A stretch of DNA of 64,000 bases from positions 32,001-96,000 of the forward strand of contig JBGPIA010000007.1 in the NCBI GenBank assembly GCA_041484665.1. Direction: 5' to 3'. Below the pieces are notes generated by a model. That model was given only the letters and a program-made list of their open reading frames with translations, had not been told where the DNA came from and ran no database searches. The position numbers were made by a program, and so were the translations under genes. Shown here piece by piece: positions 6,001 through 63,958 of the stretch. The stretch's first letter is position 1, and every line of letters begins with the position of its first letter. The stretch is from Candidatus Krumholzibacteriia bacterium. GTDB taxonomy: Bacteria; Krumholzibacteriota; Krumholzibacteriia; JAJRXK01.

Positions 6001-9000
6001 CGTCCAGGGGGATCTCCAGCAGTTTGACCGTGCCCTCCATGCGCAGCACCTGCGTCTCGACTTGCAGACCGAAGTAGCGGCTCAGGTAGACAAGCGCGCC
6101 GGGCGTGTCGCTCACGAGCAGTACGCGGGCGACATCCTGCGTCGCGAACTCGTCCTGCTCGGCGATGAGCTGCAGGGCGCCCGCGCCGTGGACGACTGCG
6201 TGCGTGTCGGGCCCCGCGCACCAGACGACCGCCTGCGCCTCGATGGCGTTTCCGCGCGCATCGCGCGTCTCGTAGCGCAGCTCGTAATAGCCGGGCCGTT
6301 CGGGCTTGAAGGTCAGTAGGGCCTCGCCGTGCTCGTCGGTCCTGACCAGACGCGCGAGGATCTGCCGCGGCTCCGTCTCCGCCAGCCGCGCGTCCTCGCC
6401 GCGCTTGCGCTGCACCTGCTCCTGGCGCCAGAGCGTGGTACGCCCCGCTTGCACGACGGGACGCTCCTGCGCGTCCTGCACGTGCAGACGCACCTGGGCT
6501 TCGTCGCCGGGAGCGACGACGTAGCGCTGCGGACAGAGGTAGGCGTAGATCTCCTGGCGCGTGATCGGCACCGTTGCGCTGCCGCGCTCCTCGCGCCGGC
6601 TGGCGTCGGTCACGCGTGCTTCGACGCTGTACGTCCAGTCCTGCGAGTCGTTCTCGTCAGCCGGGGTCGGGATCAGCACGGTGAGCCTGCCATCGCGACC
6701 CAGCGGCTGGGAGACGCGCAGGACCTCGTCCCCGCCGCCGTGCTGCCACGGCGCGGCACTGCGGCCGATCCCCGCGTCGAAACGGTCGGACAGGCCGTTC
6801 TCCCGCAGCCACCCGAAGCGGCTCCAAGGGCGCCAGGACAGCCAGCGCGGGCTGCGCGTCACGACGACCTCGGCCTCTCCGGAAACGGGCCCGCCGAACA
6901 GGTACTCGGCGGCGACCTCCACGCGCAGCGTGTCCCCGAGCACGTAGCGGCGGCTCGCGTCGAGCTGCGCCGTCACGGTGAACTCGGGCAGGCGGTACTC
7001 GTCGACCTGGAAGCCGCCGCCGCCGATCCAACGCCCCTGCCCGTCCTCGGCCGGCTTCTGCAGCTGGACCTGATACATGCCCAGCGCTGGATGCTCGTCG
7101 AGCACGTGGGTCAGCTCGAGGGCTCCGTTGTCGTCGAGCTTGAGCTCCTGGCGCAGGACCTCGCTGCCATCCGCGGCACGGATCACGACCACGATCGACT
7201 CGCCGGCAGGCGCGACGTTGACCCGCTCGGCCGCCTCCTGGCGGCGGACGAAGGCCTGCAGGTGCACTGTCTCGCCGGGGCGATAGAGCGGCCGGTCGCT
7301 GAGGACGTAGCTGCGCCAGGCTTCCTCGTGCTCCGGGCGATCCCACGAGCCGGGTCCGAGGTTCATCAAGACCGGATGCCCCTTCACCACGCCGATGGCC
7401 AAGCTCAGGTATCCGTTGGTTTGCACCGTGGCGATATGGGCGAGGCCGTCACCGTTGGTCGTGACCTTCGTCGTGCTCCACGCGAGGTTGCGGCGGCTCG
7501 CGTCGTCGCGGATCTGCGCGCGCGCGATCAAGAGCTGCGCGCCGGTGATGGGCTGGCCCGCCTGCATCTCGACCAGCCATAGCTCCTGCTGCCCGCCGCC
7601 GATGGCCTGTTGGGTAAGGCCGAGGTCGGTGACCTGGAAGAGCAGCTCGGCCGGAGCCTCGCCATCTTGCAACACGCGCCCCGCTGCCTCGTTGGGGTTC
7701 GCTGGCCGCTTGCCCGCCTTCGCCGTCTCGGCGGGGCGCATCGTCACGGTGACCCGGTAGAGGCCCGCGGGCAACGGATCCAGGGACATGATCTTGGAGC
7801 GAGGCACGTGGGGCTGCGGTGCCCGGGGCGCGAAGGCGGCCGTGTCCGCCAGCGCCGTGTCGGGGCCTGCGTTGCCGCCGTCTTGCTCCGCCGCTGCTGT
7901 TCCACGGTTTCCCCCCTGCGGGCGCTGCGCGCCCTGCGCGTCCTGCGCGCCCTTCTCTCCCCGCTTCCCCCGCTCCCCCTGCTCGCTCGTAACCGCGGGC
8001 GGTTGCTGCCCTCGCGCCCGCTGCTCCTGCAGGTCGTCGTACGCGCGCGTCAGAATCAGCTTGCCCGCGCCCTCCCGGAAGTAGCCGGAGAGCCCGCGCG
8101 CGCCCGGCGTGGAGGTGGCCGGGAGATCGAGGTCGCGCACCGGATCGAGCTGGCGGACCTCGAGCGTCCAGCCCAGCAGATTGCGCCAGGAGACCTGCAC
8201 GGCGTGGTACGAGCCCGGGCGATACAAATCGGACCCCTGCACCGTCGCCGACGGCGCCGTCAGGCTCGCCAGTCGCTGCGCCGCCTGCTGCACGGCACCG
8301 CTGTCCTTGGCGGGAGCGGCCGCGACGGCAGCCCGGTACTGCTCTTCCGCCTCCCGGAAGAGCCCGCGGTTCTCGGCCAGCTGCCCGAGCTGCCAGTGCG
8401 CTGATGCGGCGAGGGGGCCCGGTGGGTCGAGGGCGAGCACGTCGCGCCCGACACGCTCCCGTGTCTCGCCGAAGCGGTACGCATTCTCGTCGGCGAGGAT
8501 CCGCTCGGCGAGCGCGAGCAGCCGTTCGCGGGGCGCCTTGGCGTTGAACAGGTTCTGCCACATGCGCTCCACCGGCGCCGCCACGTTGGGCCCCGAGCTC
8601 CACTCGAACGGCCGGACCGTGCCCGAGGGCAAGAGCAGCGCGTCCATCAGCTCCAGGTACTCGCGCGTGGCCAGCGGGATGTCCGGCAGCGACTCCCAGC
8701 GCTCCAACGCGAGACCGAAAAGCCGCTGCAACTCCGGCCCTGCCTCCACGCGGGCGCGCACCAGCTCGCGCACGGCCCGCGCGCCCCAGTCGTCCAGCTC
8801 CTCGGAAGCCATGGCCTGCAGTGCGATGCCCTCCAGGCGGGCCTGCTGCTGGTCTTGCTGCATGCCTGCCAGGCGCAGCGCGCAGGTGTGGCGGTAGAAT
8901 CCCACCGCGCGAGTCTCGTAGCCCGGGTCGACCTTGCCGGCGCGCTCGAGCAACGGCAGCGCTTCGGCGTAACGCTGCTCCTCGAACAGCTTCGTGCCCC

Positions 9001-9375: not shown

Positions 9376-10221
9376 ATGCATCCGCTCCCGCTGTTGTTCC
9401 TGGCCCTCTGCTTCCTCGCCCACGTGACCGGCGACTTCGTGCTCCAGACCGAGGCCATCGTCAAGGGCAAGCAGAGCAGCGACCGCGTCTTGCTGTGGCA
9501 CGTGGTGCAGCACGTGCTCGCGCTGTGCGTGCTGTTGCCGGCCGGGTCCCTGCTGGTCGGGCTGGCGGCACGCGGCACTCCCAGCGCGCGCCCGACGTGG
9601 GGCGAGCTGGCCGTGATCGTCGCCGGCGTCGCTGTGACGCACTGGGCCATCGACAAGACGAAGATCCTCATCGACCGCCGCCGGGGCGGCTCGGCCACCA
9701 GCTACGTGCTGGATCAGATCGCCCACGTCGTGGCGATCGGAGTGCTGGTGACGTGGCTGCGGGCCCGGCACGACGCGTGGCCGGCCACCGAGCTGGCAAC
9801 CTGGCAGGGGCTGGGCCGCAGCTGGAGCGTGACGCACGTGGCCGCCGGCATCCTGCTGCTGGCCAGCTACGTGTACGCGGCGCGCGCAGGGGCGATCCTC
9901 GCCTGGATGGTCACGCTGTCGCTCACGCGCGACCGTACTCCGGAGGCCCTGGCGGCCGACGGGATCCCTGCCTATCCGTTGCGCGACGGCCGGACCCTGG
10001 CGCTGGGCTATCTGGAGCGCTTGCTGGGACTCACGTGCGTGCTCTGGGGATGGTTGTGGGCGCTGGCGCTGCTGCTGGGAGGCAGGCTCGCGCCGGTCGC
10101 GCGGCGAGCGCTGCGCCGGCGCGACTCCTCTATCGTTCCGGAGTACCGCCTGCTGGAGGTGCTCTGCAGCCTGTCGACCGTATTGGTCGTGGGCGTCGTG
10201 GTGAGGATGTTGTTGCGCTGA
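9376..10221 (+). CDS. DUF3307-like membrane protein
   Basis: LAHVTGDFVLQT, HWAIDKTK and DQIAH motifs; multiple TM helices. Confidence 0.8.
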   Translation: MHPLPLLFLALCFLAHVTGDFVLQTEAIVKGKQSSDRVLLWHVVQHVLALCVLLPAGSLLVGLAARGTPSARPTWGELAVIVAGVAVTHWAIDKTKILIDRRRGGSATSYVLDQIAHVVAIGVLVTWLRARHDAWPATELATWQGLGRSWSVTHVAAGILLLASYVYAARAGAILAWMVTLSLTRDRTPEALAADGIPAYPLRDGRTLALGYLERLLGLTCVLWGWLWALALLLGGRLAPVARRALRRRDSSIVPEYRLLEVLCSLSTVLVVGVVVRMLLR

Positions 10222-49996: not shown

Positions 49997-52900
49997 CTAC
50001 GGCGCGGCGCCCAGTCGCACCGGGACGCGCAGGCGCACCCGGCTGCCATCGCGATCGAGCAGACGCAACTCGCCGCCGTTGACGAAGCCGTCCGGCGCCA
50101 CAGGCGGCGGAGCGCCGGCCTGGACCGAGAGCGGGGCGGGGGCGTCGGGGTACAGGTCGAACGCGGCCGCGTCATGCACCGTGCCCGTGAGCGCCACGCT
50201 GTTCTTGCGCACGAAGCGCTCCACCAGCTGGAAGGTCCAGCTCTCCTTGTCCTTGGCGTGCGTGAAACCGCCCTCCACGACCAGCGTGTAGTGTCCTGCC
50301 ACCGGCGCGTCCAGGGCGACGGTCGTCTTGCGGTAGCCGAGCCCATCGCGCACGACGAACTTGCCGGCGGCGTCGCGGATCACGATCGGCACGTCGGTCA
50401 TACGGTCGTACACCTCGCGCGGCAGCTCGATCTCGAATTCCACGCGCGCGATCGTGTCGTCCACCGGAAACTCGTAGCTCCAAGAATCGGTCCCCTTGAC
50501 CTCCACCGTTCGTGCGCGCCGGTACTGGTTGATCTCGCCGGCCGCGGTGCCACGGAAAGGCTCGTCGAAGAGCGCAGTCAGCTCCAGCTCGGTCTTGGGC
50601 TGCTCGCCGGGCTGGGCGAAGGAGAGGCGCTCCACGGCTGGCGGGCTCACGGCGAAGCCCTCGAAGCGCGCGCGCAGATCGTAGGTCGAGGTGATCGCCG
50701 GGCTGAATCCCGATACGGTGACGATCTCCCAGACGCCGGGCGTCAGCTCCGCGCCGGCGAAGACGCGGGAGACCTTGCGGGTTTCGGTGCTGCTGGCCCA
50801 CCCGATGAAGTCGATCAGCCGCCCCTGCGGGTCGTGGATGGCGGCGTGCACCCGGCCGTCCTTCCCCTCGGGCACGGCCAGCTCGACCTCCATGGCGCAG
50901 GCGCCCGGCGGCACCCGCACGAAGCGGCGCTCCAGCGCGCCGGGGGTGAGCGTGCCCGCCTTCCATTGGCGCTCGTAGCCTTCGGCGGCGGTGAACTCGA
51001 AGGGGCGCACGACGGTGACCTGCAGCTCGAACTCCTGCGCCGCTGGGCCAGAGCGCGCAGCGCCCTTGACCCGCCCAGTCACGGTGCCGACGTAGACGCC
51101 GGGCTTCTGCAGCGCCCTGGGGTCGTAGGTGAGCTTCACCGTGGCCGGGCCCTCGCCGGCGATGTAGGTCTCGCCGCGGTCGAGGCGGATCCACGGCGAG
51201 TCGGCGGTGAGCGTGAAGGCGCGGTAGAAGCGATTGCGCTCGTCTTTCGTGCAGCCATCGGCGAAGCGCGGAGTGATGGTGAAGGTCTGCGCGCGCGGAG
51301 GCTGTGGAACGTAGCTGCCCATGCGCCAGTACGCTGCGGGTCCCTCGCCGTCGCGCTGCAGCGGCGCCTCGGTACGCACCTTGTACAGCGTCACCCGCTG
51401 CGCCTCGCCCGCGTCCGCCAGCGCGGCGGCAGTCTCGTACGCCGCAGGCAGGTCGACCACTCCCGCGCCCACGTCCAGGCGGCTGTAGCCGGGCAGCGGC
51501 TTGGCCGTGGCGCGCAGCGCGCGCTTGATCGTGCCGAAGGTGTAGCCCTTGTTCTGCCCGCGCAGGGCTCCCAGGATGCAGGCGACGCTGCCCGCCGTGT
51601 GCGGACTGGCCATGCTCGTACCGGTATAGAGGTCGTGGCGCGACTCGAACAGCGGCACGGTGCTGCTGGCGCCGCCGGGTGCGGCCACGTCGGGCTTGGC
51701 GAGATCGCCGCCGCGGCTGCTGAAGGCATAGAGCTCGTCGCGGACGAGCCCGCCGCCGTGCAGGGCGCTGCCCGCCTCCTTGGTCAAGAGTGCGGCGCAC
51801 GCAATCACCCCGTCAGCGTCGGCCGGCGTCCCGACGCTGCTGATTCCCGGCCCCTGGTTGCCCGCGCTGGTTACGATCACCAGCATCGAGGTCTTGTCGA
51901 GGAGCTCGTCGAGGAACTTGTCGATCGCCGTGTCGCCCTCGCTCTCGCTGCCGATGCCGTAGCTCATGTTGATGACCACGGGGACGTCGTAGTCCTTCAG
52001 GAAGCGCGCCACGTACTCGAACGCCTTCTTCATCGTCTCGGTGCGCGAGCTGCCGCCCGCCATCCGGCTGTCGCCGACCTTGCAGCTGATCACGCGAGCG
52101 CCCGCAGCCACACCGTCCATCCCCTCCTGCCCGTGGACGCGCCAGCCCGCGGCGATGCCCGCCACGTGGCTGCCGTGGCCGGTCTCGTCGTAGTGGAAGC
52201 TGAGCTGTGGCTGCTCGTCGCCGCGCAGGTCCAGCGCCAGCGTCAGCACGCGGCGCGAGTCCTTGGTGGCCGGATCGCGCAGGTCGATCGTGTCGTAGTC
52301 GACCGTGTAGTCGCGCAGCAGCGCCTCGCCGTCCAGGCGCCCGTCGCGGTCGCGGTCCAGCGCGCACACCCACACCCTCGGCGCTCGTGCGATGCGGTCC
52401 TCGGTCTGGCGCGCCCGCTCGCTCCAAGCGCGGCGCTCCTGTACACCGCGCCCTCCGCCGAGCTTCGCCACGGCTGCCTCGCGCTTGGCCGCGAACACGA
52501 CGAAGCCCCAGCGATCCGACTCGTTCCCGTTGTCATCGAGGTCGCGCGTCCCCTCGTTGTTGACCATTCCGGCCTCGCTCAGCACTCCGGTCCAGACCAG
52601 GCCAGAGTCCGCCGGCGCCAGCGGAAGCTGGTCGAAGCCCGAAAGCCAAAGCCCGTCGGCGACCTCCAGCACGCGCGGGCTCTGTCCCTCGACCCACTTT
52701 GCCGGCGAGAGCTCGACCTTGCCCTGGCCGCTGAAGTCGCGTGCGTCGATGACCTTGACCAGGCCCTCGCTCGTTTGCGTGAGCCCCGGGATGCCCATGT
52801 CGACGCCGGTGTCGAGCACGGCAACTAACGCGCCGCGCCCGTCCCACTGCGGGTGCTGCTCGTGGAAGCGGCGCGCGCCGACGTCCTCGATCGGTAGGAA

Positions 52901-53014
52901 CGGCCAGGGCTGCTTCGCGGCGCCCAGGCGCGACGCGCCGGGCAGCGCGACGCACGCGGCGGCGAAGTGCATCGCGAGCAGGAGCCTTCGGTCGAGACGG
53001 CGGGTCGAGTGCAC
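49997..53014 (-). CDS. S8 subtilase, tripeptidyl-peptidase II-like
   Basis: AVLDTGVD, HGSHVAGIAA, SAGNQGPG, GTSMASP; an insert of about 200 aa between catalytic D and H; long C-terminal beta domains; GGAGG RBS before GTG. Confidence 0.9.
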   Translation of the reverse strand: MHSTRRLDRRLLLAMHFAAACVALPGASRLGAAKQPWPFLPIEDVGARRFHEQHPQWDGRGALVAVLDTGVDMGIPGLTQTSEGLVKVIDARDFSGQGKVELSPAKWVEGQSPRVLEVADGLWLSGFDQLPLAPADSGLVWTGVLSEAGMVNNEGTRDLDDNGNESDRWGFVVFAAKREAAVAKLGGGRGVQERRAWSERARQTEDRIARAPRVWVCALDRDRDGRLDGEALLRDYTVDYDTIDLRDPATKDSRRVLTLALDLRGDEQPQLSFHYDETGHGSHVAGIAAGWRVHGQEGMDGVAAGARVISCKVGDSRMAGGSSRTETMKKAFEYVARFLKDYDVPVVINMSYGIGSESEGDTAIDKFLDELLDKTSMLVIVTSAGNQGPGISSVGTPADADGVIACAALLTKEAGSALHGGGLVRDELYAFSSRGGDLAKPDVAAPGGASSTVPLFESRHDLYTGTSMASPHTAGSVACILGALRGQNKGYTFGTIKRALRATAKPLPGYSRLDVGAGVVDLPAAYETAAALADAGEAQRVTLYKVRTEAPLQRDGEGPAAYWRMGSYVPQPPRAQTFTITPRFADGCTKDERNRFYRAFTLTADSPWIRLDRGETYIAGEGPATVKLTYDPRALQKPGVYVGTVTGRVKGAARSGPAAQEFELQVTVVRPFEFTAAEGYERQWKAGTLTPGALERRFVRVPPGACAMEVELAVPEGKDGRVHAAIHDPQGRLIDFIGWASSTETRKVSRVFAGAELTPGVWEIVTVSGFSPAITSTYDLRARFEGFAVSPPAVERLSFAQPGEQPKTELELTALFDEPFRGTAAGEINQYRRARTVEVKGTDSWSYEFPVDDTIARVEFEIELPREVYDRMTDVPIVIRDAAGKFVVRDGLGYRKTTVALDAPVAGHYTLVVEGGFTHAKDKESWTFQLVERFVRKNSVALTGTVHDAAAFDLYPDAPAPLSVQAGAPPPVAPDGFVNGGELRLLDRDGSRVRLRVPVRLGAAP

Positions 53015-53286
53015 GTTGGCCTCCCGGGTCGCAGGGGTCGCCCAGTCCGTCAAGGCCGCATCGGCCGCGCCGGTCGCCCAGCGCCGCGGATAACACGGGA
53101 AAGGCCGCTCCGCGGGAAGCACGGATCGCGCGGGGCCTGGCGCGCCGGGCGTGGCGCGCGGGACGCAGACGGCCTCCCAAACCCAGCGATCCTAAGCGCT
53201 GAGGCAGCGTGGGCGCAAAGAGGCAGTGCGGACGTCCATTCTGGCGCAGGCGGCGTGGCGATGAGCAGGCTCTCTTGCCCGAAACA

Positions 53287-53314: not shown

Positions 53315-53629
53315 CGCTCTCTCTCTCATGGGAGCCCCCTGCTGGTTCGGCCGGGGCTCCTACGCTCTCTGACTCACCTCGACTCGACGCTCTTCGCCTC
53401 CACCCTGGGGCGGGACACCACCTTCGGACGGAAGGCCCGGGCCGCCGCCACAGCGACGTCCGGGGCCGGGTCCAGCCGGTGCGCCACCTGGCGCGCTGGC
53501 GTTGGACACCTGGGTGTCCCCTCCTTGGGACAGCCCCGGCGGCCGGCTCCCCCCGCACCGGCCGGGGGCCAGGGGCGGGGGGAGAGCCAACCAACTTCGT
53601 ATCAAGAACTTCCGGAGCCGTGTCGAGTG

Positions 53630-54733
53630 ATGGACCGAAGAGGTTCCGGGAGCGCGGATACGAACCTGCCAGGGGACTATCACAACGCGTGCCAGGCGGA
53701 GCGCGGGCGGTGGCGTGCGGCAAGATGGGGCGCGTTCGGCCTCAACCTTGCAGGGCTCACCGCTTCGACCATGAGCATCTCCACGCGCTCATCCCTGCAT
53801 GTCCTATTGCAGGAGAGCCCATTCCAGCACGAGCACGCCGCGGTCGCAGCGGCTGGTTCGCTGCCCGAGGGCGAGTGGTTGGCCGAGGCCCTGCTCGCGC
53901 GCACCCCGCGTGTCATGGCCCGTCGGGACTGCCCGCGTGGCGACCTGACCTGGGAGTCGGCCACGGCGCGCGCGGATACCGCGGCTGGCGCCGCCCTCGT
54001 GAGCGCAGCCGGTCACCGCTGGCGAGAGGAGGCCGCCGCGGGGGCGCTCTACCAGTTCAGCGACATGGGGCAGGCCCTCATCTCGCTGCGCTGGGGGATC
54101 GTCGCGGGAGAGGCTATGCCCGAGGAGGAGCTCGATGCGCTGCGCACCTCGCTGGGAGCGGGCATCGTCTTGGAGCAACAGAATCATCTGGTTCCCAAGC
54201 TGCCCTGCGAGATCCCCCGCGAGGGGCCGGAGCCGAACCAGGAGTTGCTCCTGCACGGCGTGGTCGAGGGCAAGGTGGCGATGGCCGGAGCGCTGGCCGC
54301 GACGGCCACGGGCCAACAGGACGTGCGGCGACTCGCGCTGCGCCTGCTGGAGGAGTCGTCCTCGTGGGTGCGGACCGGGCAGCCCAACGATCTGTGCGAC
54401 GTCCATCTGCTGACCCTAGGCGAAGCGATCGTCTTCCTGACCTCCTGCGACTTGCCGCCGCACCGCACTCAGCAGGCGCTCGCTCAGTACGCAGCGTACG
54501 TCGCCTGGTACCGCAACGAGCGGCTGGATGCCGCGCCTCTGGTGACGCGACCGCGCGCGGCCTGGTGGGACGAGCACGTGGCCAAGCTAGAGGCCCCGCA
54601 GTGGCGCACGCGCATCGTGTGGATCCACCGGGTAAAGCTGCTGGCCGCGGCGCGGGCGCTGCGCGGTCAGATCGACCGCAACGTCGAGGGGAGCTTCCAG
54701 CGGGCGCTCGACCTGCTGGAGCAGATGGACTAG
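53630..54733 (+). CDS. Hypothetical helical protein (start 53630 or 53771)
   Basis: Long ORF with typical GC3 bias and balanced composition; no recognisable motif. Confidence 0.65.
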   Translation: MDRRGSGSADTNLPGDYHNACQAERGRWRAARWGAFGLNLAGLTASTMSISTRSSLHVLLQESPFQHEHAAVAAAGSLPEGEWLAEALLARTPRVMARRDCPRGDLTWESATARADTAAGAALVSAAGHRWREEAAAGALYQFSDMGQALISLRWGIVAGEAMPEEELDALRTSLGAGIVLEQQNHLVPKLPCEIPREGPEPNQELLLHGVVEGKVAMAGALAATATGQQDVRRLALRLLEESSSWVRTGQPNDLCDVHLLTLGEAIVFLTSCDLPPHRTQQALAQYAAYVAWYRNERLDAAPLVTRPRAAWWDEHVAKLEAPQWRTRIVWIHRVKLLAAARALRGQIDRNVEGSFQRALDLLEQMD

Positions 54734-54903: not shown

Positions 54904-56265
54904 ATGTTCCTCCACGGCGTCTTGCGCTGGGTCTCGCGCTGGCTCTCGCGCTTGGCTGTCCAGCGCGCGCAGCGCGAAGCTGTGGGCGCGCCGCGGCGCC
55001 GGTACGCGGCCGGCCGGCGATCGGCGTGGGTCCTGGCGATCGCCGCCGGCGTGATGGCGGCCTCGTATCTGTACGTGCTGTCGGGCCTGCTGAACGTCGC
55101 GCCCGCAACGTCCATCGTCACGCGTCTCGACGTTCTGTTTTCCTCCGATCTCGCCCTGCGTGTCTTCAACCTGACGGGCGCGACCGACTCGACCCAGGAG
55201 CTGCGCGAGCACCGGATCTCGCTTCCCCACCCGCTCATGAACCCGATCTGGGGGACGGCTGGCGGCCTCGTCTTCCACCTCCTGCCGGGCCCGGCGCCGG
55301 GGCCCGCCCGCCGCTTCGTCGCTGCGCGGCTGCTCGTCGCGATCATCGCGGCAACGGGGATCGCGGCGCTGGTCTCGCTGGGCCACTCCCTGGGAATCCC
55401 TTTGCCATTGACCGTGCTGTTGCTCGCACACTATCTGGCCTTCACCGCGAACGCCCTGGTCGCGCTGCCGGATCACATGGGGATCTCCAGCGGGCTGCTC
55501 ACGCTGTGCTTCTGCGTGTGGGCCCGCAGCGAAGGGCGCCGCCGGGGAGCCGCGCTCGCCGGGCTCGCAGTGTTGTGCGGCGGTACTACGATCACCAACG
55601 GGATCTTTCCCGGCGGTCTGTGGCTCTCCACGCGACTCGAGCGCCGGATGGCCGCAACCGCGGGCCGCAAGCTGCGCCGCCGCAGCGTCTGGGTCGCCAT
55701 GCTGCTGGGCTTGGCGACCCTCGGGTCGATCGCGAGCGTGAAGGCTGTTGCGCACCTCCGGGGCGAGGCCCTCATCTACCGGCATATGAATCCGCGGATT
55801 CTCCACGACCCGATCGCGGGGCTGCGTCTTATACCTGCCGCGCTGGTGTACCCGGCGGTCGGACCCACTCCCCATACGGTCGTGTCCGGGAGTTCACTCG
55901 CGTTGACGTACGAGCCGCTCGACTTCCGCGGCTATGGACCGGCCCAGGGACTGGCCGCGATCGCTTGGGCCACTCTGTTGGCGCTTGCCGCCACGTGCGC
56001 GCTGAGAGACCGGACTGTGCGGAAGTGGGCGTTGGCGGCGGCGGCGTGGATCGGGTTCAACATCGCGTTCCACAGTGTGTGGGGCGACGAGCTGTTTCTC
56101 TTCACTCCCCACTGGTCGTGGGCGCTCATGTCCATCGTCGTGCTGGGGGCGGCGCGGGCTCGGCGCCCGCGCGTGAGCGTGTTGATGGGCGCGCTGATGC
56201 TGGTGTCCCTGGTCGGTCAGGTGACCACGCTGTGCCACATCGTCCAGGCCGTCGCCACCCTGTAG
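54904..56265 (+). CDS. Polytopic membrane protein, possibly GT-C-like
   Basis: About 10 hydrophobic helices; loop after TM1 (DVLFSSD..HPL); C-terminal WGDELFLFTPHW. Confidence 0.7.
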   Translation: MFLHGVLRWVSRWLSRLAVQRAQREAVGAPRRRYAAGRRSAWVLAIAAGVMAASYLYVLSGLLNVAPATSIVTRLDVLFSSDLALRVFNLTGATDSTQELREHRISLPHPLMNPIWGTAGGLVFHLLPGPAPGPARRFVAARLLVAIIAATGIAALVSLGHSLGIPLPLTVLLLAHYLAFTANALVALPDHMGISSGLLTLCFCVWARSEGRRRGAALAGLAVLCGGTTITNGIFPGGLWLSTRLERRMAATAGRKLRRRSVWVAMLLGLATLGSIASVKAVAHLRGEALIYRHMNPRILHDPIAGLRLIPAALVYPAVGPTPHTVVSGSSLALTYEPLDFRGYGPAQGLAAIAWATLLALAATCALRDRTVRKWALAAAAWIGFNIAFHSVWGDELFLFTPHWSWALMSIVVLGAARARRPRVSVLMGALMLVSLVGQVTTLCHIVQAVATL

Positions 56266-56332: not shown

Positions 56333-57718
56333 TCAGCGCGTCGACTCCACGGAGACGGGCGCGATCGCCGCGACCAGGCGGCGGTTTTCCCGCCCGACCG
56401 CCGCCGCCAGCACGATCCAGACCGCGACCAGCGCCAGGTTGAACAGTGCGAACTCCCTGGTCCCGAGCCTCATGCGGCTGGCGCCCACGAACACCAGCAG
56501 CGCCGAGAGCACGTCGCCCGCCCGCCAGAAGAAAGTATCGATGGCCTGCTTGGCCTTGTACTTCTCCTCGCGCGTCGTGGGCAGGAACAGCACGTGGCGC
56601 ACGGTGTTCTGCAATGAGTAGTCGGTGGCATTCTCGGCGGTCTTGACCCAGCGCACCACCGAGAGCACCGGATACAGTGCGAGCAGCCCGTAGCCCGTGA
56701 GCGCGATGGCCGGCAAGATGAGGATCGCCACGCGCACGCCCAGGTACTTCAGCACGCGCGACACGACGAACAGCTGGATCAACACCCCGGCCACGTTGAC
56801 GACGAGCTGGAAGCCCGAGTAGAAACGGCCGATGAACTGCTCCTCGGTCAGCCCGCCCGCCGTACCGGCAGCCAGGGCGTCCTTCGCCGCCTGCGCGACC
56901 GTACGCCCCAGCACGTACTCGCCGGTCGTGTTCACCCAGTTGAGCACGAGCATGAGGAAGGCGATCATCAGCAGGTAGCGCGTCCGCCACACCAGCGCGA
57001 ACGCCCCTGCGCCGCCGATGGGGTCCTCGGCGGCCGTGCGACGCCCGTGGGTCGCGGCGGCGGCTCGCCGGCGCTCGCGCGCGTCCACGACGTTGGTCAG
57101 CAACAGGCTGACCGCGAGGATCGCCGCGGCCACCAGCATGAGCTGGTAGACACCCAACGGTGCGATCAGGACTTTGGTGACCGCGCTCCCCAGCACCGCT
57201 CCCAGCGACGCGCCAAAGGCCACGATGGCGAACAGTCGCTTGCCGGCCTGTGGGGTGTAGACGTCGTTCGCAAAGGACCAGAATTGGGAGATCACCATCA
57301 GATTGAAGATCCCCACCCATAGGAAGAACACGATTCCCAGCGGAACCCGCGCGTGCGCCAGCAGATAGAAGACGCCCAGGCAGGCTGTAAAGAACAGCGT
57401 GACGACGTTGATCAGGCGCCGGCGCGGGAAGCGGCTGGCCAGAGCGCCGTACAAGGGCACGGCTCCGCTCAGCAGCACCACCTGCCCTGCCGCGAGGTAG
57501 CTCTTCAGCTCGGCGCCGCCGCCGGAGAGGATCAGCGCCTCACGCACCGGCTTGATGATGTAGTACGCCGTCAGCAGCAGGAAGACGTTCAGCGCCAAGA
57601 GCAGCACCGTCGCGCCCTCGCCGGCGCGCACCTCGGCGAACAACGAGAGCAGGGTGTCCAGGAACGATTTACGCCCCGGGACGCCGCCTGCGTTGGCGGA
57701 GGTGATCGGCCGATGCAT
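56333..57718 (-). CDS. Npt1/Tlc (AAA family) nucleotide translocase
   Basis: EVRAGE, AYYIIKPVREAL, FWSFANDVY..KRLF, KYKAKQAIDTFFWRAGD; about 12 TMs; GGGGAGG RBS. Confidence 0.85.
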   Translation of the reverse strand: MHRPITSANAGGVPGRKSFLDTLLSLFAEVRAGEGATVLLLALNVFLLLTAYYIIKPVREALILSGGGAELKSYLAAGQVVLLSGAVPLYGALASRFPRRRLINVVTLFFTACLGVFYLLAHARVPLGIVFFLWVGIFNLMVISQFWSFANDVYTPQAGKRLFAIVAFGASLGAVLGSAVTKVLIAPLGVYQLMLVAAAILAVSLLLTNVVDARERRRAAAATHGRRTAAEDPIGGAGAFALVWRTRYLLMIAFLMLVLNWVNTTGEYVLGRTVAQAAKDALAAGTAGGLTEEQFIGRFYSGFQLVVNVAGVLIQLFVVSRVLKYLGVRVAILILPAIALTGYGLLALYPVLSVVRWVKTAENATDYSLQNTVRHVLFLPTTREEKYKAKQAIDTFFWRAGDVLSALLVFVGASRMRLGTREFALFNLALVAVWIVLAAAVGRENRRLVAAIAPVSVESTR

Positions 57719-57748: not shown

Positions 57749-59476
57749 CTAGCGTTGCAGGGCCACGACGCGACCGCTGGCCCGGGCGATGTACGCCGTC
57801 ACCGAAGCGCTGAACCCGGACCCGCGGTCGACCTGGCACTCCACGGCGATGAAGGGCGCCTTGGCCGCATCCACAGAGCGCAGCACGTCCGCCGCCGCAC
57901 CCTGGCTAAGCGCAACGGTGGTCCACACCTGATCGAGCCACCCCGTGCCGGCGACGACGTGGCGGCCGGCAGTCACGGCCGCCACGCGGGCGTGGTAGCG
58001 GGGGTGCGTGCCGGGGAAGCTGCCGCGCTCCTCGCCCAGGTCGTGGAAGCCAACCGCCTGCCCGTCGCAGCTGAAGAAGTCCAGCGGCGCGAGGCGCTGA
58101 AAGTAGACGCGCGCGAGCTTGTCGCGACGTTCGGCCAGCGTGCGCGCCATGTAGGCAGCCGCACGCGGATCTTGATACCCGCCCTGCTGGCAGACGGCGC
58201 GCAGGTGCTCGTCGCCCAAGGCCGTGATGATCTTGGTCGCCCAGTAGGCATCGCGGTCGGTGGTATTCGCGAAGGCCGCGTTGGGCTGCAGGCCCTTGAA
58301 GCCGGCCGGGTCGTAGTAGTGGCTCTCGAAGTAGCCCACCTCCTGGAGCTCCGCAGGCCGCTGAATCTTCCGCCAGCCGGGCTCCGTCACCCCCACGGTG
58401 AGAGCGCGCGTCATGAGCGGGATGGGGTCGATGGTGTATTCGAAGCCGTAACGCGGAACCGGACCGAGCGCGCCGGCCCCCATCGTGCTGGCGAAGTCGA
58501 TCAGGTGGTGCTTGACGAAGTGCCGGCCGGCCTCCTCGACGTACATGTCGAGCGTGTTGCCCTGCTTGGCGTCGTAGTGGTTCAGCCAGGAGCAGAAGAT
58601 CTTCAGCCCGCGGATCTCGCGACGGTCCTCGTGGTCGACGCGGTCGTTGGCGTCATCATCGCGCCGCCCCTTCCAGTCGAAGGAGCCCACCGGCTTGCCC
58701 GGGAGGTACCGGCTCGCCAACGCCAGCCACGTCCCTTCCTTCGGCTGGTCGACGCGGCGCAGGATAAGGTCGAGATCGGCATCGGTCATGGGCCGCACGC
58801 GGCCATCGGGCTCCACGAATTTTACGCCCTCACCCAGCACGAGATCCGTGCGGCGGAAGAGCACCGCTTCATCCTCGGGCACATTGAAGCCCGCGGCGTG
58901 GAGCAGCTTGCCGCAGATCACGTCGACGGTGATGGTCATCCCCAGGCAACCCGGCGCATCGAACTTGATCACGTAGACGACGCCTTTGGCGTCGCGGATG
59001 TTGAACCCGGGTGTGACGCCCTCGGTCTTGGCCTTGATCACGGTCCATGGACCGCTACGGTCGGGGCCGCCACCCTCGCCCATTCCGCGCGCCACCTCCT
59101 CGGGCGTCATGGGGAACAGCCCGATGCGGTTGGTGAACCAGGTGGAATTGGGCACCTCGTCGAGCGCGTTCAGGTTCGCCGCAGGCAGCACCTGATCGCC
59201 GCCGAACAGCGTCCTCACGCGGCGCACGGCGCGGCCGGGGTGGGTCAAGCGGCCCAGCGGGCGCACGAATACTTCGTTGGGCCCGTCCCACAGCAGGTTG
59301 GGCTCGCGGGTGCGCGGCAGCGGGATGTCGCGCCGGTCGTCCTCGTACCAGATGACGGGCTCGTCCTGCAGCGGCTCGCCGGCGCGCGCGCGCGGGGCGG
59401 TGGCCAGACCGCCGGCGCACAGCCACGCCAGCAACACGACGGCGCGGTTAGCGGCTGGGAACCGGATCGCGGCCAT
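57749..59476 (-). CDS. Exported protein with protein-kinase-like (HipA/PI3K/CotH-like) motifs
   Basis: Signal peptide ending ARA-G; KTEGVTPG loop, YVIKFD, DVICGKLLHAAGFNVP, NHYDAKQGN, LIDFAS. Confidence 0.75.
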   Translation of the reverse strand: MAAIRFPAANRAVVLLAWLCAGGLATAPRARAGEPLQDEPVIWYEDDRRDIPLPRTREPNLLWDGPNEVFVRPLGRLTHPGRAVRRVRTLFGGDQVLPAANLNALDEVPNSTWFTNRIGLFPMTPEEVARGMGEGGGPDRSGPWTVIKAKTEGVTPGFNIRDAKGVVYVIKFDAPGCLGMTITVDVICGKLLHAAGFNVPEDEAVLFRRTDLVLGEGVKFVEPDGRVRPMTDADLDLILRRVDQPKEGTWLALASRYLPGKPVGSFDWKGRRDDDANDRVDHEDRREIRGLKIFCSWLNHYDAKQGNTLDMYVEEAGRHFVKHHLIDFASTMGAGALGPVPRYGFEYTIDPIPLMTRALTVGVTEPGWRKIQRPAELQEVGYFESHYYDPAGFKGLQPNAAFANTTDRDAYWATKIITALGDEHLRAVCQQGGYQDPRAAAYMARTLAERRDKLARVYFQRLAPLDFFSCDGQAVGFHDLGEERGSFPGTHPRYHARVAAVTAGRHVVAGTGWLDQVWTTVALSQGAAADVLRSVDAAKAPFIAVECQVDRGSGFSASVTAYIARASGRVVALQR

Positions 59477-61067
59477 AGAAGAGCCCACCCCTCATGTATT
59501 GGAAGATCTGGTCGGTGCGGAAGCGGAATACGGGGCCCTCGTTGCTGAAGGCCACCTCCGCCCGCGCGATGATCCCGCGACGCCCCACCAGGCGGAAGCC
59601 GCCGCCGAAGGAGGCGGTCATGGCATCCAGCGCAATCTGCTCCGTCCGCCCGAACACCTGCCCGAAGTCGGCCAGCAGGTACATATCCACGCCCTGGTTC
59701 TGCGGCGCGGCCACCGCGAACCACGGGAAGCGGTACTCCGCGGTGAGCGCCAGCATGCCCTTGTCGCGCCACCGGAAGTCGAGGTAGCCGCGGAATTGGT
59801 CCGGCTCGTAGTTGGTCACCAGACGCTGGAAGGGGATCTGGTCTCCCTGCGTGAGGTCGATCCAGGTGACGTATCCCCGTAGCGCGAGCGCACGCTGCGT
59901 GTACCACAACGGCAGGAACTGCTGCAGCTCCACCCGGTAGGTCAGGAATGAAACGTCCCGCCCGCCGGTTCCATCGAACCACGACACGCGAATGCGGCGC
60001 ACACCGCCGTCCTGCGGCCGCGCGGTGGTGCGGGCGTCCTCGTGCTCCAGCGAGAGCGAGAGGGTCACGCCGTCGGAGCGTTCCCGGTAGCCATACGGCG
60101 GCGTCCCCGCGAAGATCTGCTCGATACTGGGATCGAAGTTCTGGCCCGGACCACGGGTGCTGACGGTCGAGTACAGTCCCTCTGCCTGGAAGGCCAGACC
60201 CGGCGGCCCCAGTGCGCGCCGCCACTCCAGCCCGCTCCACGCCAGCTCGGTGGTGAAGAAGGACTTCTGCTCTTCACCGGCGCCGGGGCCGATTCCGTAG
60301 AAGCGCGTGTTGGGACGCATGCGGTAGCCTCCCGCCAGCGTCCACTGTGAGCTCGACCCCTCGCGCAGCAGCAGCGCGCCGCTGAGTTTGTGGATGCGGG
60401 CCGTGGTACCCTCGTAGCGCAGCTGGGCCTTGTTCGTCGGGCGCAAGACGTTGTTGTGATAGAGCGTGATCCCGCCACCCGTACCGGTCGCGCCCCCAGC
60501 GCGCGCGCTGAGCAGGAACCCGAATGTGAGGACCTTGGGCGAGAGGAGCTCGACCGCCCGTCCGATGACGTGCGTCTCGTCGAGATAGACGACCGTCGCG
60601 CCGACCCCATCGCTGACGAGCTTCAACGGGAACTTGACGACGTCGTATGGGTAGACGAGGGTCTTCTCCCACAGCGGCAGCGGCCGGTTGCGGAAGGGAC
60701 TGCGCAGGGAGTCCGCCGCGGCGGGGATCGTCCCCCACGCGCTGGCGCCGCTGCCCTCGCTTCGGTTGGGGCCTGGCGACCTCGGGATCGACACGGAGTG
60801 GATCGCCGCGACCGCCACTGGCGCAGCAGAAGAGTCTGCGGCCGCCGGCTCTGCGGCGAGAGAGCTTGCCGACGGCGGCGCGCTGGCGGCGACTGGAGGC
60901 TGCGCTGCGGCGAGCGCCCCCACCGCTGACAGTGCGAGCGCTGACGCCAGCGACACGGGCCAATGCGGCGGCGCCGCGAGCCCGAACGCCGACAGTGAGA
61001 ACCATGCGGATCGTGGGCGTTTCCAGGCCGGCCGACGCGAGCAGGACTCCATCACGCGCGACTCCAT
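59448..61067 (-). CDS. Omp85/BamA-TamA family outer-membrane beta-barrel lacking POTRA domains (start uncertain, could be 61052 or 60956)
   Basis: Amphipathic beta strands; FRGY loop-6 motif, ADFGQVF, SFGGGFR; signal peptide plus Ala/Pro/Ser linker. Confidence 0.82.
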   Translation of the reverse strand: MESRVMESCSRRPAWKRPRSAWFSLSAFGLAAPPHWPVSLASALALSAVGALAAAQPPVAASAPPSASSLAAEPAAADSSAAPVAVAAIHSVSIPRSPGPNRSEGSGASAWGTIPAAADSLRSPFRNRPLPLWEKTLVYPYDVVKFPLKLVSDGVGATVVYLDETHVIGRAVELLSPKVLTFGFLLSARAGGATGTGGGITLYHNNVLRPTNKAQLRYEGTTARIHKLSGALLLREGSSSQWTLAGGYRMRPNTRFYGIGPGAGEEQKSFFTTELAWSGLEWRRALGPPGLAFQAEGLYSTVSTRGPGQNFDPSIEQIFAGTPPYGYRERSDGVTLSLSLEHEDARTTARPQDGGVRRIRVSWFDGTGGRDVSFLTYRVELQQFLPLWYTQRALALRGYVTWIDLTQGDQIPFQRLVTNYEPDQFRGYLDFRWRDKGMLALTAEYRFPWFAVAAPQNQGVDMYLLADFGQVFGRTEQIALDAMTASFGGGFRLVGRRGIIARAEVAFSNEGPVFRFRTDQIFQYMRGGLFYGRDPVPSR

Positions 61068-62251
61068 CCGACAAGGCAGCGTTCCTGGTGGCGCTGGCGG
61101 TGTGCGCGCTCCTGCTCGCAGGGACGTGGCCCACGGGATCGCACCTGCCGGTGGCTCCCCTGGATCATCCCACGCTGGAGACGCGCGCCGCCTCCCTCGA
61201 GCCGGGGCCCGAGCACGGTTACCGATTCGTGGTGTTCGGGGACCAGCGGGCTCTCGCCGACCGGGAGTGGCCGACCCTGGTACGTCGCATCGGTGAGCTG
61301 GCCGCAGCGGACGGGCGCCTGCTGTTCATGGTGGACACGGGCGATATCGTAAACGACGGCAGGTACGCCGACCAGTTCCCCTTCGCAAGGAAGATCCTCG
61401 CGCCGGCGCGGGCGCTCCCCTACCTGGTGGGCGTCGGCAACCACGAGGTGTACAACAATCGCTCGGGGGTCGCACGGGACCAACTGTCGGCCTTCTTGCG
61501 CGCCCTGGATGCGGGCTTCGCGCCCGACCGCATGTACTACCGCAAGGACGTCGGGCCGCTGCGCCTGCTGTTCCTGGACAGCAACGACCTGGTCTACGGC
61601 CCCGGCGGCCGCGGACCGGCGCGCGAGGCGGCGCGCGCTGCGTCAGCGGCGAGCGAACGGGCGGACAGACCAGCGGACGGACCGGCAACCGGCCGGGAAA
61701 CCGCGCAACTGGACTGGCTGCAAACCCAGCTGGACGAGATCGCCGCGGGCCCATCCGCAACGGTCGTGGTCGTGATGCACCACCCGTTCGTGCAGTCCTC
61801 CCCCAAGCACAGCGAAGAGGCGGGGGCGCTGTGGAGCTACCGCTACCATGGCAAGACGCTGCCGGACCTGCTGCTGGATGGCGGCGTCGACGTGGTGCTC
61901 TGCGGCCACACCCACACCTACGAGCGCTTCCGGGTGCAGCGCCCAGATGGCCGTTCCCTCGTGGTCATCAACTTCTCCGGGCGGCCACGGAGCAGCTTCC
62001 TGTGGTTCGGCGCCGGGTCTCGCCGAGCGCGCGACATCCGCGGACACGAGCAACAATGGTTGGCGGCGCACGGCTGGCACGACCTCTCCGGCTGGCAGCT
62101 CGCCCAGGAGGATGCGATGACCGCGTCCGAGGCGGATCAGTTCGGAGTGTTCACCGTCGAGCCAGCGGGCGGGCTCCTGCTGGAGCTGTGCTATCTCGAG
62201 CCCGCCGCTCCTGGCGGAGTGCGGCGCGTCCCAGCCGTGCGGCTGCACTGA
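61004..62251 (+). CDS. Exported/anchored calcineurin-like metallophosphoesterase (purple-acid-phosphatase-like)
   Basis: FGDQR, GDIVNDG, GNHE, MHHP and GHTH metal-binding motifs after an N-terminal hydrophobic helix. Confidence 0.88.
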   Translation: MRIVGVSRPADASRTPSRATPSDKAAFLVALAVCALLLAGTWPTGSHLPVAPLDHPTLETRAASLEPGPEHGYRFVVFGDQRALADREWPTLVRRIGELAAADGRLLFMVDTGDIVNDGRYADQFPFARKILAPARALPYLVGVGNHEVYNNRSGVARDQLSAFLRALDAGFAPDRMYYRKDVGPLRLLFLDSNDLVYGPGGRGPAREAARAASAASERADRPADGPATGRETAQLDWLQTQLDEIAAGPSATVVVVMHHPFVQSSPKHSEEAGALWSYRYHGKTLPDLLLDGGVDVVLCGHTHTYERFRVQRPDGRSLVVINFSGRPRSSFLWFGAGSRRARDIRGHEQQWLAAHGWHDLSGWQLAQEDAMTASEADQFGVFTVEPAGGLLLELCYLEPAAPGGVRRVPAVRLH

Positions 62252-62371: not shown

Positions 62372-63958
62372 ATGCTCCACCCGCAAGGTCGCTGCACCCT
62401 CGCGCGCTGCAAGAGCGAGTCCACAGCCGCTCCGCGCGCGCCACGGCGGCACCGGCACCCCAGCGGGCCGCCACGTGGTGCAGCGCTGCCGCTGCTGCTC
62501 GTGCTTTCTCTGTTGCCGGCGCTGCAGATGATATGGCCGCGGTGGGGCGGCGGGGCCTTTGCGCGCACGTTCACGGTGAGGCTGGATGGCACGGGCGGTG
62601 TGCCGACCTTCCAGGCCGCCATCGACTCCGCGGAGTCGGGCGACGAGATCGTCGTCGAACCGGGTACATACACCTGGGAGAATCAGGGTAGCGGCACCGG
62701 TCACGGCTTGATCGAGTTCCCACGGGACAAGATCGGGATGTGGGTGCATAGCGCCGGCGGTCCCGCGGTGACCATCCTCGATGCGCAGCACCGCGGGCGG
62801 GTGATGTTCATCAATGGCATAAACGATTCGACGTTGCGCGTGTCGCTCACGGTCGAGGGCTTCACGATCCGCAATGGCGTGGCCCCCACCGATCCCGAGG
62901 CGGGCTACGGCTGGGGGGGTGGTGTGTGGGGTCACCTCGCCGACAGCACGCTGCGCGATTGCATCTTCTTAGGCAACTCTGGTGTCAACGGCGGCGCAAT
63001 CTGGTGGGGCGGCGTGAGCGCGATCACGCTGGAGGATTGCGTATTCCGGGACAACCACGCCGAATTCGGCGGCGGCATGATGATCATCAACAGCTACAAG
63101 ACGGCCACGCTGCGTCGCTGTACGTTCACCGGCAACACTGCGAGCAACTACGGCGGCGGACTGTACTGCGTCCACGACGCGTTCGCGCTGTACGACTGCG
63201 TCTTCACCGGCAACCAGGCGATCTGGCTCGGCGGCGGACTCTGCTGTAACACCATCCGTCCTTCCACCGCGGGGAGATTGACCGTCGCTTGGAACTCTTC
63301 CGCCGATGGCAGCGGGATCTACGGGCGCACGCACCCCGATCTCGGGCTGACGAGCGATCTCACGATCGAGCGCGGGCTGATCGCCTTCAATTTCGGGGGC
63401 CCGGCGGTCACCCAGGACCCGCTGAGCCAGTTGACCCTTTCTTGTACCGACCTCTACGGAAACCGGGGAGGCGACTGGAAGGGTAGCATCGCCTCACAGG
63501 CGGGCCAGGCCGGCAACCTCTCCGTGGATCCGTTGTTCTGCCCGGGAGCCGGCGGCGATCCCGGTCTCTGCGCGGCATCGCCGTGCTTGCCACAGAACAA
63601 CGCCTGCGCGGCCACGCTCGGCGCGCGCGGCCAGGGCTGCGACGCATGCACGGCGGAGGTGGCGAACCAGCAGATCGTCCTGCATCCGAGCCTGCACAAC
63701 CCTTATCGCCCATTCTTCCACTCCGGGGCGTTGTTGCCGTTCAGCCTGGCCCAGCCGGGGTTCGTGGAGCTGCGGGCGTTCGACCTGCGCGGGCGTTCGC
63801 TGCGAACCATCCTTGCCGCAGCGCAGGAGGCGGGCGACCACCTCGCCGTGTGGGACGGCCGCGACGCCGATGGGCGCTTCGTGCCCTCGGGCGTGTACGT
63901 CCTGCGGTTGCAGACGGGTGGCCTGCAACAGACCCAGAAGCTCGTGATCGTCCGCTGA
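62372..63958 (+). CDS. Exported right-handed beta-helix repeat protein with C-terminal FlgD-Ig-like domain (start uncertain)
   Basis: FQAAID, FxGN..GGG repeats, GNLSVDPLFC, C-terminal WDGRDADGRFVPSGVYVLRL. Confidence 0.85.
   Translation: MLHPQGRCTLARCKSESTAAPRAPRRHRHPSGPPRGAALPLLLVLSLLPALQMIWPRWGGGAFARTFTVRLDGTGGVPTFQAAIDSAESGDEIVVEPGTYTWENQGSGTGHGLIEFPRDKIGMWVHSAGGPAVTILDAQHRGRVMFINGINDSTLRVSLTVEGFTIRNGVAPTDPEAGYGWGGGVWGHLADSTLRDCIFLGNSGVNGGAIWWGGVSAITLEDCVFRDNHAEFGGGMMIINSYKTATLRRCTFTGNTASNYGGGLYCVHDAFALYDCVFTGNQAIWLGGGLCCNTIRPSTAGRLTVAWNSSADGSGIYGRTHPDLGLTSDLTIERGLIAFNFGGPAVTQDPLSQLTLSCTDLYGNRGGDWKGSIASQAGQAGNLSVDPLFCPGAGGDPGLCAASPCLPQNNACAATLGARGQGCDACTAEVANQQIVLHPSLHNPYRPFFHSGALLPFSLAQPGFVELRAFDLRGRSLRTILAAAQEAGDHLAVWDGRDADGRFVPSGVYVLRLQTGGLQQTQKLVIVR

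Follow-up and report, generated by a model that had tools for sequence, protein, structure and literature searches.

Fam20 kinases need a lumenal supply of nucleotide, and CotH acts on envelope or coat proteins. A kinase in the bacterial periplasm requires an explanation, since this compartment is commonly regarded as free of ATP; the wording 'periplasm lacks ATP' is found in PMC5740924 and two other papers (articles are cited here by PubMed Central number and for the portion of their text that was available). In the available text of Major, Embley and Williams (2017; PMC5381601) no function is given for the NTT carriers of free-living bacteria and no kinase or Omp85 neighbours are mentioned, and the word 'kinase' does not occur in the main text of PMC4104836 or in the available text of PMC11358297, which deal with Omp85 proteins. 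Here we analyzed a 64,000-nucleotide stretch from Candidatus Krumholzibacteriia bacterium (assembly GCA_041484665.1, contig JBGPIA010000007.1, positions 32,001 to 96,000; hereafter the window), in which the gene of a predicted exported kinase-fold protein lies between the genes of a POTRA-less Omp85-family barrel and of an NTT/TLC nucleotide-carrier homolog, with a phosphoesterase gene nearby (Table 1). This conserved Omp85-kinase-NTT module, in part of the cases with a phosphatase, is the main finding of our work; a preliminary description of the same DNA had treated the kinase gene alone. There is good support that it is a conserved module of the envelope, seemingly one not described so far, and no account of it was found in the literature searched, which left most subscription journals outside its coverage.

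Table 1. Position, strand and basis of the features discussed (position 1 is the first nucleotide of the window)
Feature	Position	Strand	Basis
Exported atypical kinase-fold gene (P0001, 575 amino acids, 'family A')	57749..59476	-	ORF call, homologs, predicted fold
Predicted Sec/signal peptidase I signal peptide, residues 1-32, no lipobox	59381..59476	-	Sequence rule and homolog survey
Kinase-like domain, residues ~135-462	58091..59074	-	VIA-align, Foldseek on model
Gly-containing loop K150-F158 (KTEGVTPGF)	59003..59029	-	K150, G153, G157, F158 invariant
Beta3 lysine K171	58964..58966	-	95/95 and 41/41 homologs
Catalytic loop H300-N307 (HYDAKQGN) with D302, N307	58556..58579	-	Both invariant
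Metal-binding IDF, D327	58493..58501	-	D327 invariant
C-terminal FN3/Ig-like domain, residues 463-575	57752..58090	-	VIA-align Z ~8 to fibronectin type III domains
POTRA-less Omp85-family outer-membrane barrel	59448..61067 (true start codon uncertain)	-	Pfam Omp85 E 1.4e-7
Single-domain NTT/TLC nucleotide-carrier homolog	56333..57718	-	Pfam TLC E 1e-12, above cut-off
Divergent calcineurin-like metallophosphoesterase	61004..62251 (start inferred; open frame from 60647)	+	Pfam Metallophos E 6.6e-13

Conservation of the gene module

The kinase open reading frame (ORF) is free of internal stops, and its G+C content by codon position (70/48/90%) is a coding pattern. The last 29 bases of the barrel gene overlap the kinase start, and the carrier gene begins 30 bp past the kinase stop. 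A scan of the locus for promoters and terminators gave no sigma-70-like site and one terminator-like site, which is chance level. The overlap is also relevant for the conserved 'MxxIRF' N-terminus of the kinase, which is read as a by-product of the conserved barrel tail encoded there and not as a signal. At 61004-61067 the 5' ends of the barrel (-) and phosphoesterase (+) genes abut or overlap head to head without a clear promoter gap, both starts being uncertain.

Family A comprises 558 homologs at E<=0.001 (8000 candidates scored). Because of these homologs and the invariant residues described below, the kinase motifs are not due to chance. Relatives are named in Gemmatimonadota and Eisenbacteria, and Acidobacteriota are among the Atlas clusters; the source genome holds a single copy, no plasmid match was found for the kinase, and no RNA holder was listed for it, which weighs neither way. 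Longer fused forms were absent among 8000 candidates of 1008-2875 amino acids, which is weak evidence, and long open frames around family A matches in genomes turned out to be upstream non-coding extensions and were rejected as fusions. In one relative (L053; G056:C50) the kinase and barrel genes contain one in-frame TAG each (7713-7715 and 9520-9522). The kinase TAG falls at the invariant E346 position, where a near-identical metagenome copy (L149) has Glu, and no pyrrolysyl-tRNA synthetase over the cut-off was found; assembly error, recent inactivation or recoding may account for these codons.

Gene order was compared at 41 genome loci (L001 and 40 stretches picked from the family A matches, half of them distant and half close, with long contigs favoured) and at metagenome loci taken as the best 80 of 430. 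A barrel gene lies directly upstream of the kinase gene at 39 of the 41 genome loci and at all 52 metagenome loci whose upstream flank measures 700 bp or more, i.e. at 91 of 93 overall. An NTT gene is present somewhere in 14 of the 15 metagenome loci with 4 kb on both sides. A related phosphoesterase lies within the fetched stretch at 10 of the 41 genome loci, and a Metallophos or PAP2 phosphatase recurs around the module in other genomes.

Co-occurrence was also determined in 151 genomes of the phylum, which are related and incomplete, so that the following counts are not independent trials. Family A is present in 55 and Pfam TLC in 69 of these genomes, 53 of the 55 having both. From the 16 genomes with TLC but without family A, 12 NTT loci were fetched; in eight of them the carrier gene adjoins that of a second kinase-like protein, fused to an Omp85 barrel and termed family B. 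Family B proteins (~850 amino acids) combine a signal peptide, an unannotated domain with the motifs GGQQT and GDWDRH and an Omp85 barrel in one chain. The domain model (predicted local distance difference test score, pLDDT, 89.7) resembles CotH (Z 15.4), PI4KIIalpha (14.8) and CtkA (13.4). When families A and B were compared profile against profile, no significant match resulted (probability 0.6% and 3.1%), so that the sequences do not establish a common descent of the two within the kinase group. Family B occurs in 13 genomes, none of which has family A, after removal of a fourteenth (G125) whose match covers only model positions 344-402 and belongs to an unrelated gene; one metagenome locus contains both families.

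Taking both families together, an NTT of any kind is found in 65 of the 68 kinase genomes as compared to 4 of the 83 others. The single-domain carriers beside families A and B group together in a single clade (51 rows), and those of three kinase-free genomes fall outside it; the clade has full Shimodaira-Hasegawa-like approximate likelihood ratio support (SH-aLRT 100), obtained by a quick method that gave a long-branch warning. A profile of this clade (E<=1e-90) detects 53 genomes, all of which have family A (43) or family B (10), and none of the 83 kinase-free genomes. Since family B stands beside the same NTT clade, carrier and barrel keep a kinase-fold partner even though the kinase family is swapped. 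Furthermore, the kinase of family B forms the N-terminal domain of a barrel, and in most Omp85 proteins the N-terminal part is located in the periplasm (PMC11358297). At three loci (L184:672-5198, L185:8276-12883 and L186:3835-8476) the family B fusion does not adjoin an NTT but a DUF4956 membrane protein and an SdiA-regulated/phytase-like propeller, and G138, the sole family B genome without any TLC match, is of this DUF4956 type.

The kinase-fold protein and its barrel

Residue conservation was assessed in a close alignment (95 of the 120 listed family A homologs) and in a wider set reaching down to 25% identity (41 sequences, i.e. the query and 40 full-length proteins from the 41 loci, one split gene being dropped). 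The four residues marked in the Gly-containing loop, K171, D302, N307 and D327 are invariant in both (95/95 and 41/41), and K304 is invariant in the close set (95/95) but not in the wider one. The motifs occur in the canonical kinase order, and the coordinates given in the preliminary description for K171, HYDAKQGN and IDF are exact; the Lys, Asp, Asn and Asp residues that it expected in one active site are kept in all aligned homologs. Its proposal of an Asp in place of the alphaC Glu does not hold for the family, as position 185 is Gly in 71 and Asp in 9 of the 95 close homologs. In the wider set an acid is present at this position in 16 of 41 sequences (12 Glu, 4 Asp). Another acid may substitute for the alphaC Glu, and kinase families with an intact active site but no identifiable alphaC Glu exist (PMC9758233).

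The kinase protein has no Pfam family at E<=1 and no PADLOC match, only a 15-residue chance match (E 0.06) in NCBIfam and no match under E 0.8 in sequence searches of the PDB. In an AlphaFold2 model built from the close alignment (pLDDT 90.6; predicted template modelling score 0.90) the Gly-containing loop connects strands 144-150 and 157-161, K171 closes strand 167-171, helix 180-195 is next, and D302/N307 and D327 come after helix 286-298 and strand 318-325. Foldseek returned CtkA (E 8e-5) and Fam20C as best matches. The predicted kinase domain was also compared by VIA-align with 48,161 chains. The highest score was obtained for CtkA (Z 13.7, root-mean-square deviation 3.8 A over 224 aligned residues; PDB 3AKJ), followed by Fam20C (13.1), Hydra Fam20 (12.7), CotH (12.2), PI4KIIalpha (11.8), MavQ (11.0), HipA (10.8) and actin-fragmin kinase (10.7). 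The 14 best rows all belong to the atypical HipA/Fam20/CotH/PI4K group (Z 8.6-13.7), and the groups named as fold candidates in the preliminary description are indeed the top matches of the model. SelO is absent from the rows displayed, which is no argument against it. Since kinases acting on proteins, glycans and lipids score within about 2 Z units of each other, the substrate does not follow from the fold. The predicted C-terminal FN3-like domain is a common fold that implies no function. Residue conservation, predicted fold and neighbours support the view that the gene encodes an atypical kinase-fold protein that is exported, whose active site looks intact and which lacks an antitoxin; the protein is likely to be an active kinase.

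By a rule-based reading, the N-terminus of the kinase contains two Arg residues, a hydrophobic segment that begins at residue 12 (Kyte-Doolittle mean over 10 residues 2.68; helix 7-25 in the model) and the sequence A-R-A at 30-32. Among the 95 scorable close homologs a hydrophobic N-terminal stretch was detected in 91, a lipobox-like motif in three and an internal membrane helix in none. Thus, a signal peptide ahead of the kinase motifs, as described before, is also predicted by our rule; the 'secreted' protein is thus predicted to be exported, and it is probably periplasmic and not released.

Proteins of distant family A clades are lipoproteins (19/21 by rule). Of 97 kinase-barrel pairs, 76 combine a non-lipidated kinase with a barrel that has a C-terminal tail and 19 a kinase lipobox with a barrel lacking the tail, according to a rule that was adjusted after the sequences had been viewed; the remaining two show neither by rule, with a Cys visible by eye in both. 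This split, which probably reflects a single evolutionary event, suggests from the sequences that the barrel tail may replace the lipid anchor of the kinase.

The barrel also matches NCBIfam NF047779 (E 2e-11, below the cut-off). Its tail (Q-x-F-Q...G) extends past the last strand, and R327-G328 of the RG(Y/F) lid-lock motif as well as F366-x-D368-x-G370 are conserved. By these features, an Omp85 protein with RG(Y/F) and FxDxG and without POTRA, it falls into the noNterm subfamily, the assignment being set by motifs and not by the original clustering. Prediction of the barrel-kinase complex gave a score of 0.56 (runs 0.56, 0.59 and 0.56) as compared to 0.00 for the best control; the contacts agree by at least 90% between runs and the partners have a pLDDT of at least 84. 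Of 157 solved complexes 116 reach the mark applied, as do 2 of 215 mismatches; with a score no higher than 0.60, those reaching it are 18 of the 157 solved complexes and both of the passing mismatches, so that the result is weak support for binding.

The carrier, proposed mechanism and alternatives

Two ATP/ADP carriers of solved structure, 9j3n and 9j3j, are matched by the carrier clade profile (E 1.7e-18 and 9.7e-14, respectively), and K56/R59 in TM1 as well as K386/K390/D394, which align with these carriers, are invariant in the clade; a late K-x-K-x-K-x-A-I-D motif is also kept. With TIGR00769 the carrier reaches 43.6 bits at a cut-off of 387 and thus does not score as a canonical ATP/ADP translocase. 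In plant AATP1, K155, E245, E385 and K527 are needed for ATP/ADP transport, and K527 has been linked to triphosphate transport (PMC4256464).

We propose that the kinase is exported to the periplasm, docked on the barrel encoded upstream and fed nucleotide by the carrier encoded downstream, a reading to which we give an even chance. After export by Sec, the kinase would probably dock on the outer-membrane barrel, while the inner-membrane carrier would supply ATP or a related nucleotide outward in exchange for spent diphosphate. The kinase would then phosphorylate an envelope component at the outer membrane, and the neighbouring phosphoesterase, likely exported as judged by its N-terminal hydrophobic stretch, or a PAP2 phosphatase in other genomes, would reverse the phosphorylation. 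Our guess for the substrate is an outer-membrane envelope component; given that the enzyme is linked to a membrane barrel and that PAP2 phosphatases are repeatedly found next to the module, we rate a lipid or glycan head group as slightly likelier than a protein. In its widest form, which we hold to be somewhat less probable than the arrangement itself, the proposal would amount to a dedicated extracytoplasmic phosphorylation circuit with an outward NTT antiporter, a new barrel-docked kinase family, an exported phosphatase and two interchangeable kinase families, a bacterial counterpart of the Golgi kinases made from unrelated parts.

Several observations weigh against this proposal. With a single offset of 84 that fits all four residues, K155, E245, E385 and K527 of AATP1 align with A76/A77, G136, N263 and D402 of the carrier. 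As the equivalent of K527 is an invariant Asp in the carrier clade, ATP is not safely the cargo; like charges are found 3-4 residues off for three of the four positions. For PamNTT1, import of ATP is the preferred direction, and affinity is lowest for the uptake of ADP against release of ATP (PMC1951785), so that with K527 replaced, outward supply of ATP would require a carrier that behaves unlike the characterized NTTs. The altered residues could mark a switch to outward transport or another cargo. The NTT gene is directly downstream of the kinase gene at 26 of 56 metagenome loci and within ~7 kb at 26 of 41 genome loci, and 15 of the 68 kinase genomes lack the carrier clade (E<=1e-90), 12 of them having another NTT and three no TLC match at all. 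Kinship between the genomes inflates their apparent independence; of the 69 genera, 37 contain family A and 28 contain the NTT clade. Finally, the alphaC acid is missing in most of this family A clade, binding of kinase and barrel is weakly predicted, and in three of four loci with an unlinked carrier, all of one family, the carrier gene stands behind those of a class-III aminotransferase and a carbon-nitrogen hydrolase.

The last arrangement (loci L169, L171 and L173 in G002, G110 and G062) includes an enzyme pair that resembles one of pyrimidine catabolism, and could mean catabolic import. It belongs to the strongest alternative, an inbound system that we regard as unlikely: the carrier would import nucleotides or their breakdown products, barrel and phosphoesterase would serve uptake or sensing, and the kinase-fold protein would bind or use ATP from outside. 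In G093 the carrier gene is located between those of a SurE nucleotidase-family protein and a metallophosphoesterase, and the NTT-HEAT, cNMP-binding and membrane Ser/Thr kinase genes that recur near the module, as does DegP, would fit sensing. Salvage, however, needs no kinase, yet the carrier clade is always accompanied by one (53/53), and other NTT clades do occur without a kinase (4 genomes). Omp85 barrels are not known as solute pores. The barrels of the module keep the RG(Y/F) lid-lock, and closure of the barrel by a dome is described in PMC11358297. The direction of transport favours import in that all characterized NTTs named in the available text of PMC5381601 are importers and PamNTT1 is biased in the same way.

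If the periplasmic kinase is retained but not its ATP, the donor or the chemistry could differ from our proposal, with GTP, NAD, ADP or polyphosphate as donor or a nucleotidyl transfer as in SelO-type enzymes. Such a deviation is distinctly unlikely in our view. In its favour, the carrier lacks the four canonical residues of ATP/ADP carriers, and three family B copies lie beside a DUF4956 membrane protein in place of an NTT. Against it, the charged residues K56/R59 and K386/K390/D394 that align with the solved ATP/ADP carriers are invariant. Polyphosphate finds no support in the five genomes searched for a VTC polymerase, none of which has one. SelO-type AMPylases are not known to have the catalytic Asp, whereas the catalytic-base position D302 is invariant here, and AMPylation has no positive support at this locus. 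One NTT clade does transport NAD (PMC5381601).

We consider it more doubtful still that the barrel moves the kinase, in a two-partner-like manner, to the surface or into the medium, where it would act on surface structures or on other cells as CtkA does. The immediate succession of an Omp85 gene and a signal-peptide gene is reminiscent of two-partner operons, the best fold match is the secreted kinase CtkA, this kinase clade has no lipid anchor, and for PlpD a translocation of the enzyme domain has been proposed (PMC4104836). On the other hand, the barrel has no POTRA match, and the sister clades are lipoproteins or, in family B, are fused N-terminally to the barrel. Moreover, a carrier in the inner membrane would be of little use to an enzyme on the outside, but the co-occurrence with the carrier is strict. 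An inactive scaffold or a HipA-like toxin with incidental neighbours, for which the missing alphaC acid and the HipA fold match could be cited, is very improbable given that K171, D302, N307 and D327 are invariant at 25% identity, that intact-site kinases without an identifiable alphaC Glu are known (PMC9758233), and that the protein has a signal peptide, conserved neighbours, no antitoxin and no Pfam HipA or PADLOC match.

The source genome encodes three other NTT-like proteins, one of which is an NTT-HEAT whose gene is followed by those of a double cNMP-binding protein and of a membrane Ser/Thr kinase (L085:6153-11646; G000:C13); like trios flank the module elsewhere. At a number of loci (L073-L079, L084, L098, L099, L111, L112, L116, L119, L132 and L135) a membrane-anchored Hanks-type Ser/Thr kinase of ~530-550 amino acids is an immediate neighbour of the kinase-barrel genes, in some cases together with DegP, which may point to trans-envelope signalling. 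Further genes of the window are those of an exported beta-helix/polymorphic-membrane-protein-repeat protein with a C-terminal FlgD-Ig/T9SS-like tail (62372-63958, +), which follows the phosphoesterase gene and is not kept beside the module, a large exported subtilase (49997-53122, -; Pfam Peptidase_S8) whose layout we take to resemble that of tripeptidyl peptidase II, a soluble-looking protein of 402 amino acids without significant Pfam match (53525-54733, +) and a multi-helix membrane protein of 453 amino acids with a weak match to DUF6080 (E 0.025), whose gene (54904-56265, +) is convergent with the NTT gene.

Comparison with known systems

The kinase fold as such is already known, and what is new is its assembly with barrel and carrier, the mechanism of which we infer. 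The module offers an explanation for how a periplasmic kinase might obtain its ATP. If our proposal is true, it would provide a first function for the NTT carriers of free-living bacteria (PMC5381601) and for POTRA-less Omp85 barrels (PMC11358297). The module also adds an unannotated kinase family, which is found in records from Gemmatimonadota, Eisenbacteria and Acidobacteriota and, within one phylum, in 55 of 151 genomes.

Fam20C and Fam20B (PDB 4KQA, 5YH0 and 5XOM) resemble the kinase in fold (Z 11.4-13.1), in having a signal peptide and in working outside the cytosol. The bacterial protein differs from them by an identity of ~10%, no match to PF06702, its FN3-like domain and its linkage to Omp85 and NTT genes. 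The catalytic loop of the Fam20 kinases also differs from HxDxKxxN. Among Atlas neighbours, Fam20C (score 0.81) and HipA_2 (0.80) are leads only. The likeness to CtkA of H. pylori, the top fold match, and to HipA/HipT is accompanied by an identity of 8-13%, and the kinase is set apart by its Sec-type signal peptide, the absence of an antitoxin and its conserved envelope operon. Membership in a HipA toxin-antitoxin system was rejected on account of the Omp85 and NTT neighbours, the lack of a Pfam match and the signal peptide; the earlier statement that no antitoxin gene is adjacent agrees with these neighbours. CotH (PDB 5JDA) is likewise bacterial and close in fold to both families, but PF08757 is not matched, and the kinase described here is linked to barrel and carrier genes. 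The lipid kinases PI4KII and MavQ of Legionella score within about 2 Z units of the protein kinases; no sequence match connects them to the kinase, for which a lipid is one of the candidate substrates.

With regard to the membrane partners, TpsB is a barrel with POTRA_2 domains and TpsA a TPS-domain passenger. Membership in two-partner secretion was rejected, as the Pfam scan of the window proteins gave no match to POTRA, ShlB or TPS. The downstream single-domain NTT resembles the NTT/TLC carriers of free-living bacteria, including NTT-HEAT(-cNBD) proteins (Major, Embley and Williams 2017, PMC5381601). The barrel resembles the Omp85 'noNterm', 'Metallo' and PlpD types (Heinz and Lithgow 2014, PMC4104836) in lacking POTRA domains and, as in PlpD, in being associated with an enzyme. 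In the 'Metallo' type a PF00149 phosphoesterase is fused to the barrel, whereas here it is encoded by a separate neighbouring gene (PMC4104836). Unlike in PlpD and 'Metallo' proteins, the enzyme associated with the barrel in this module has a predicted kinase fold and is encoded by a gene of its own.

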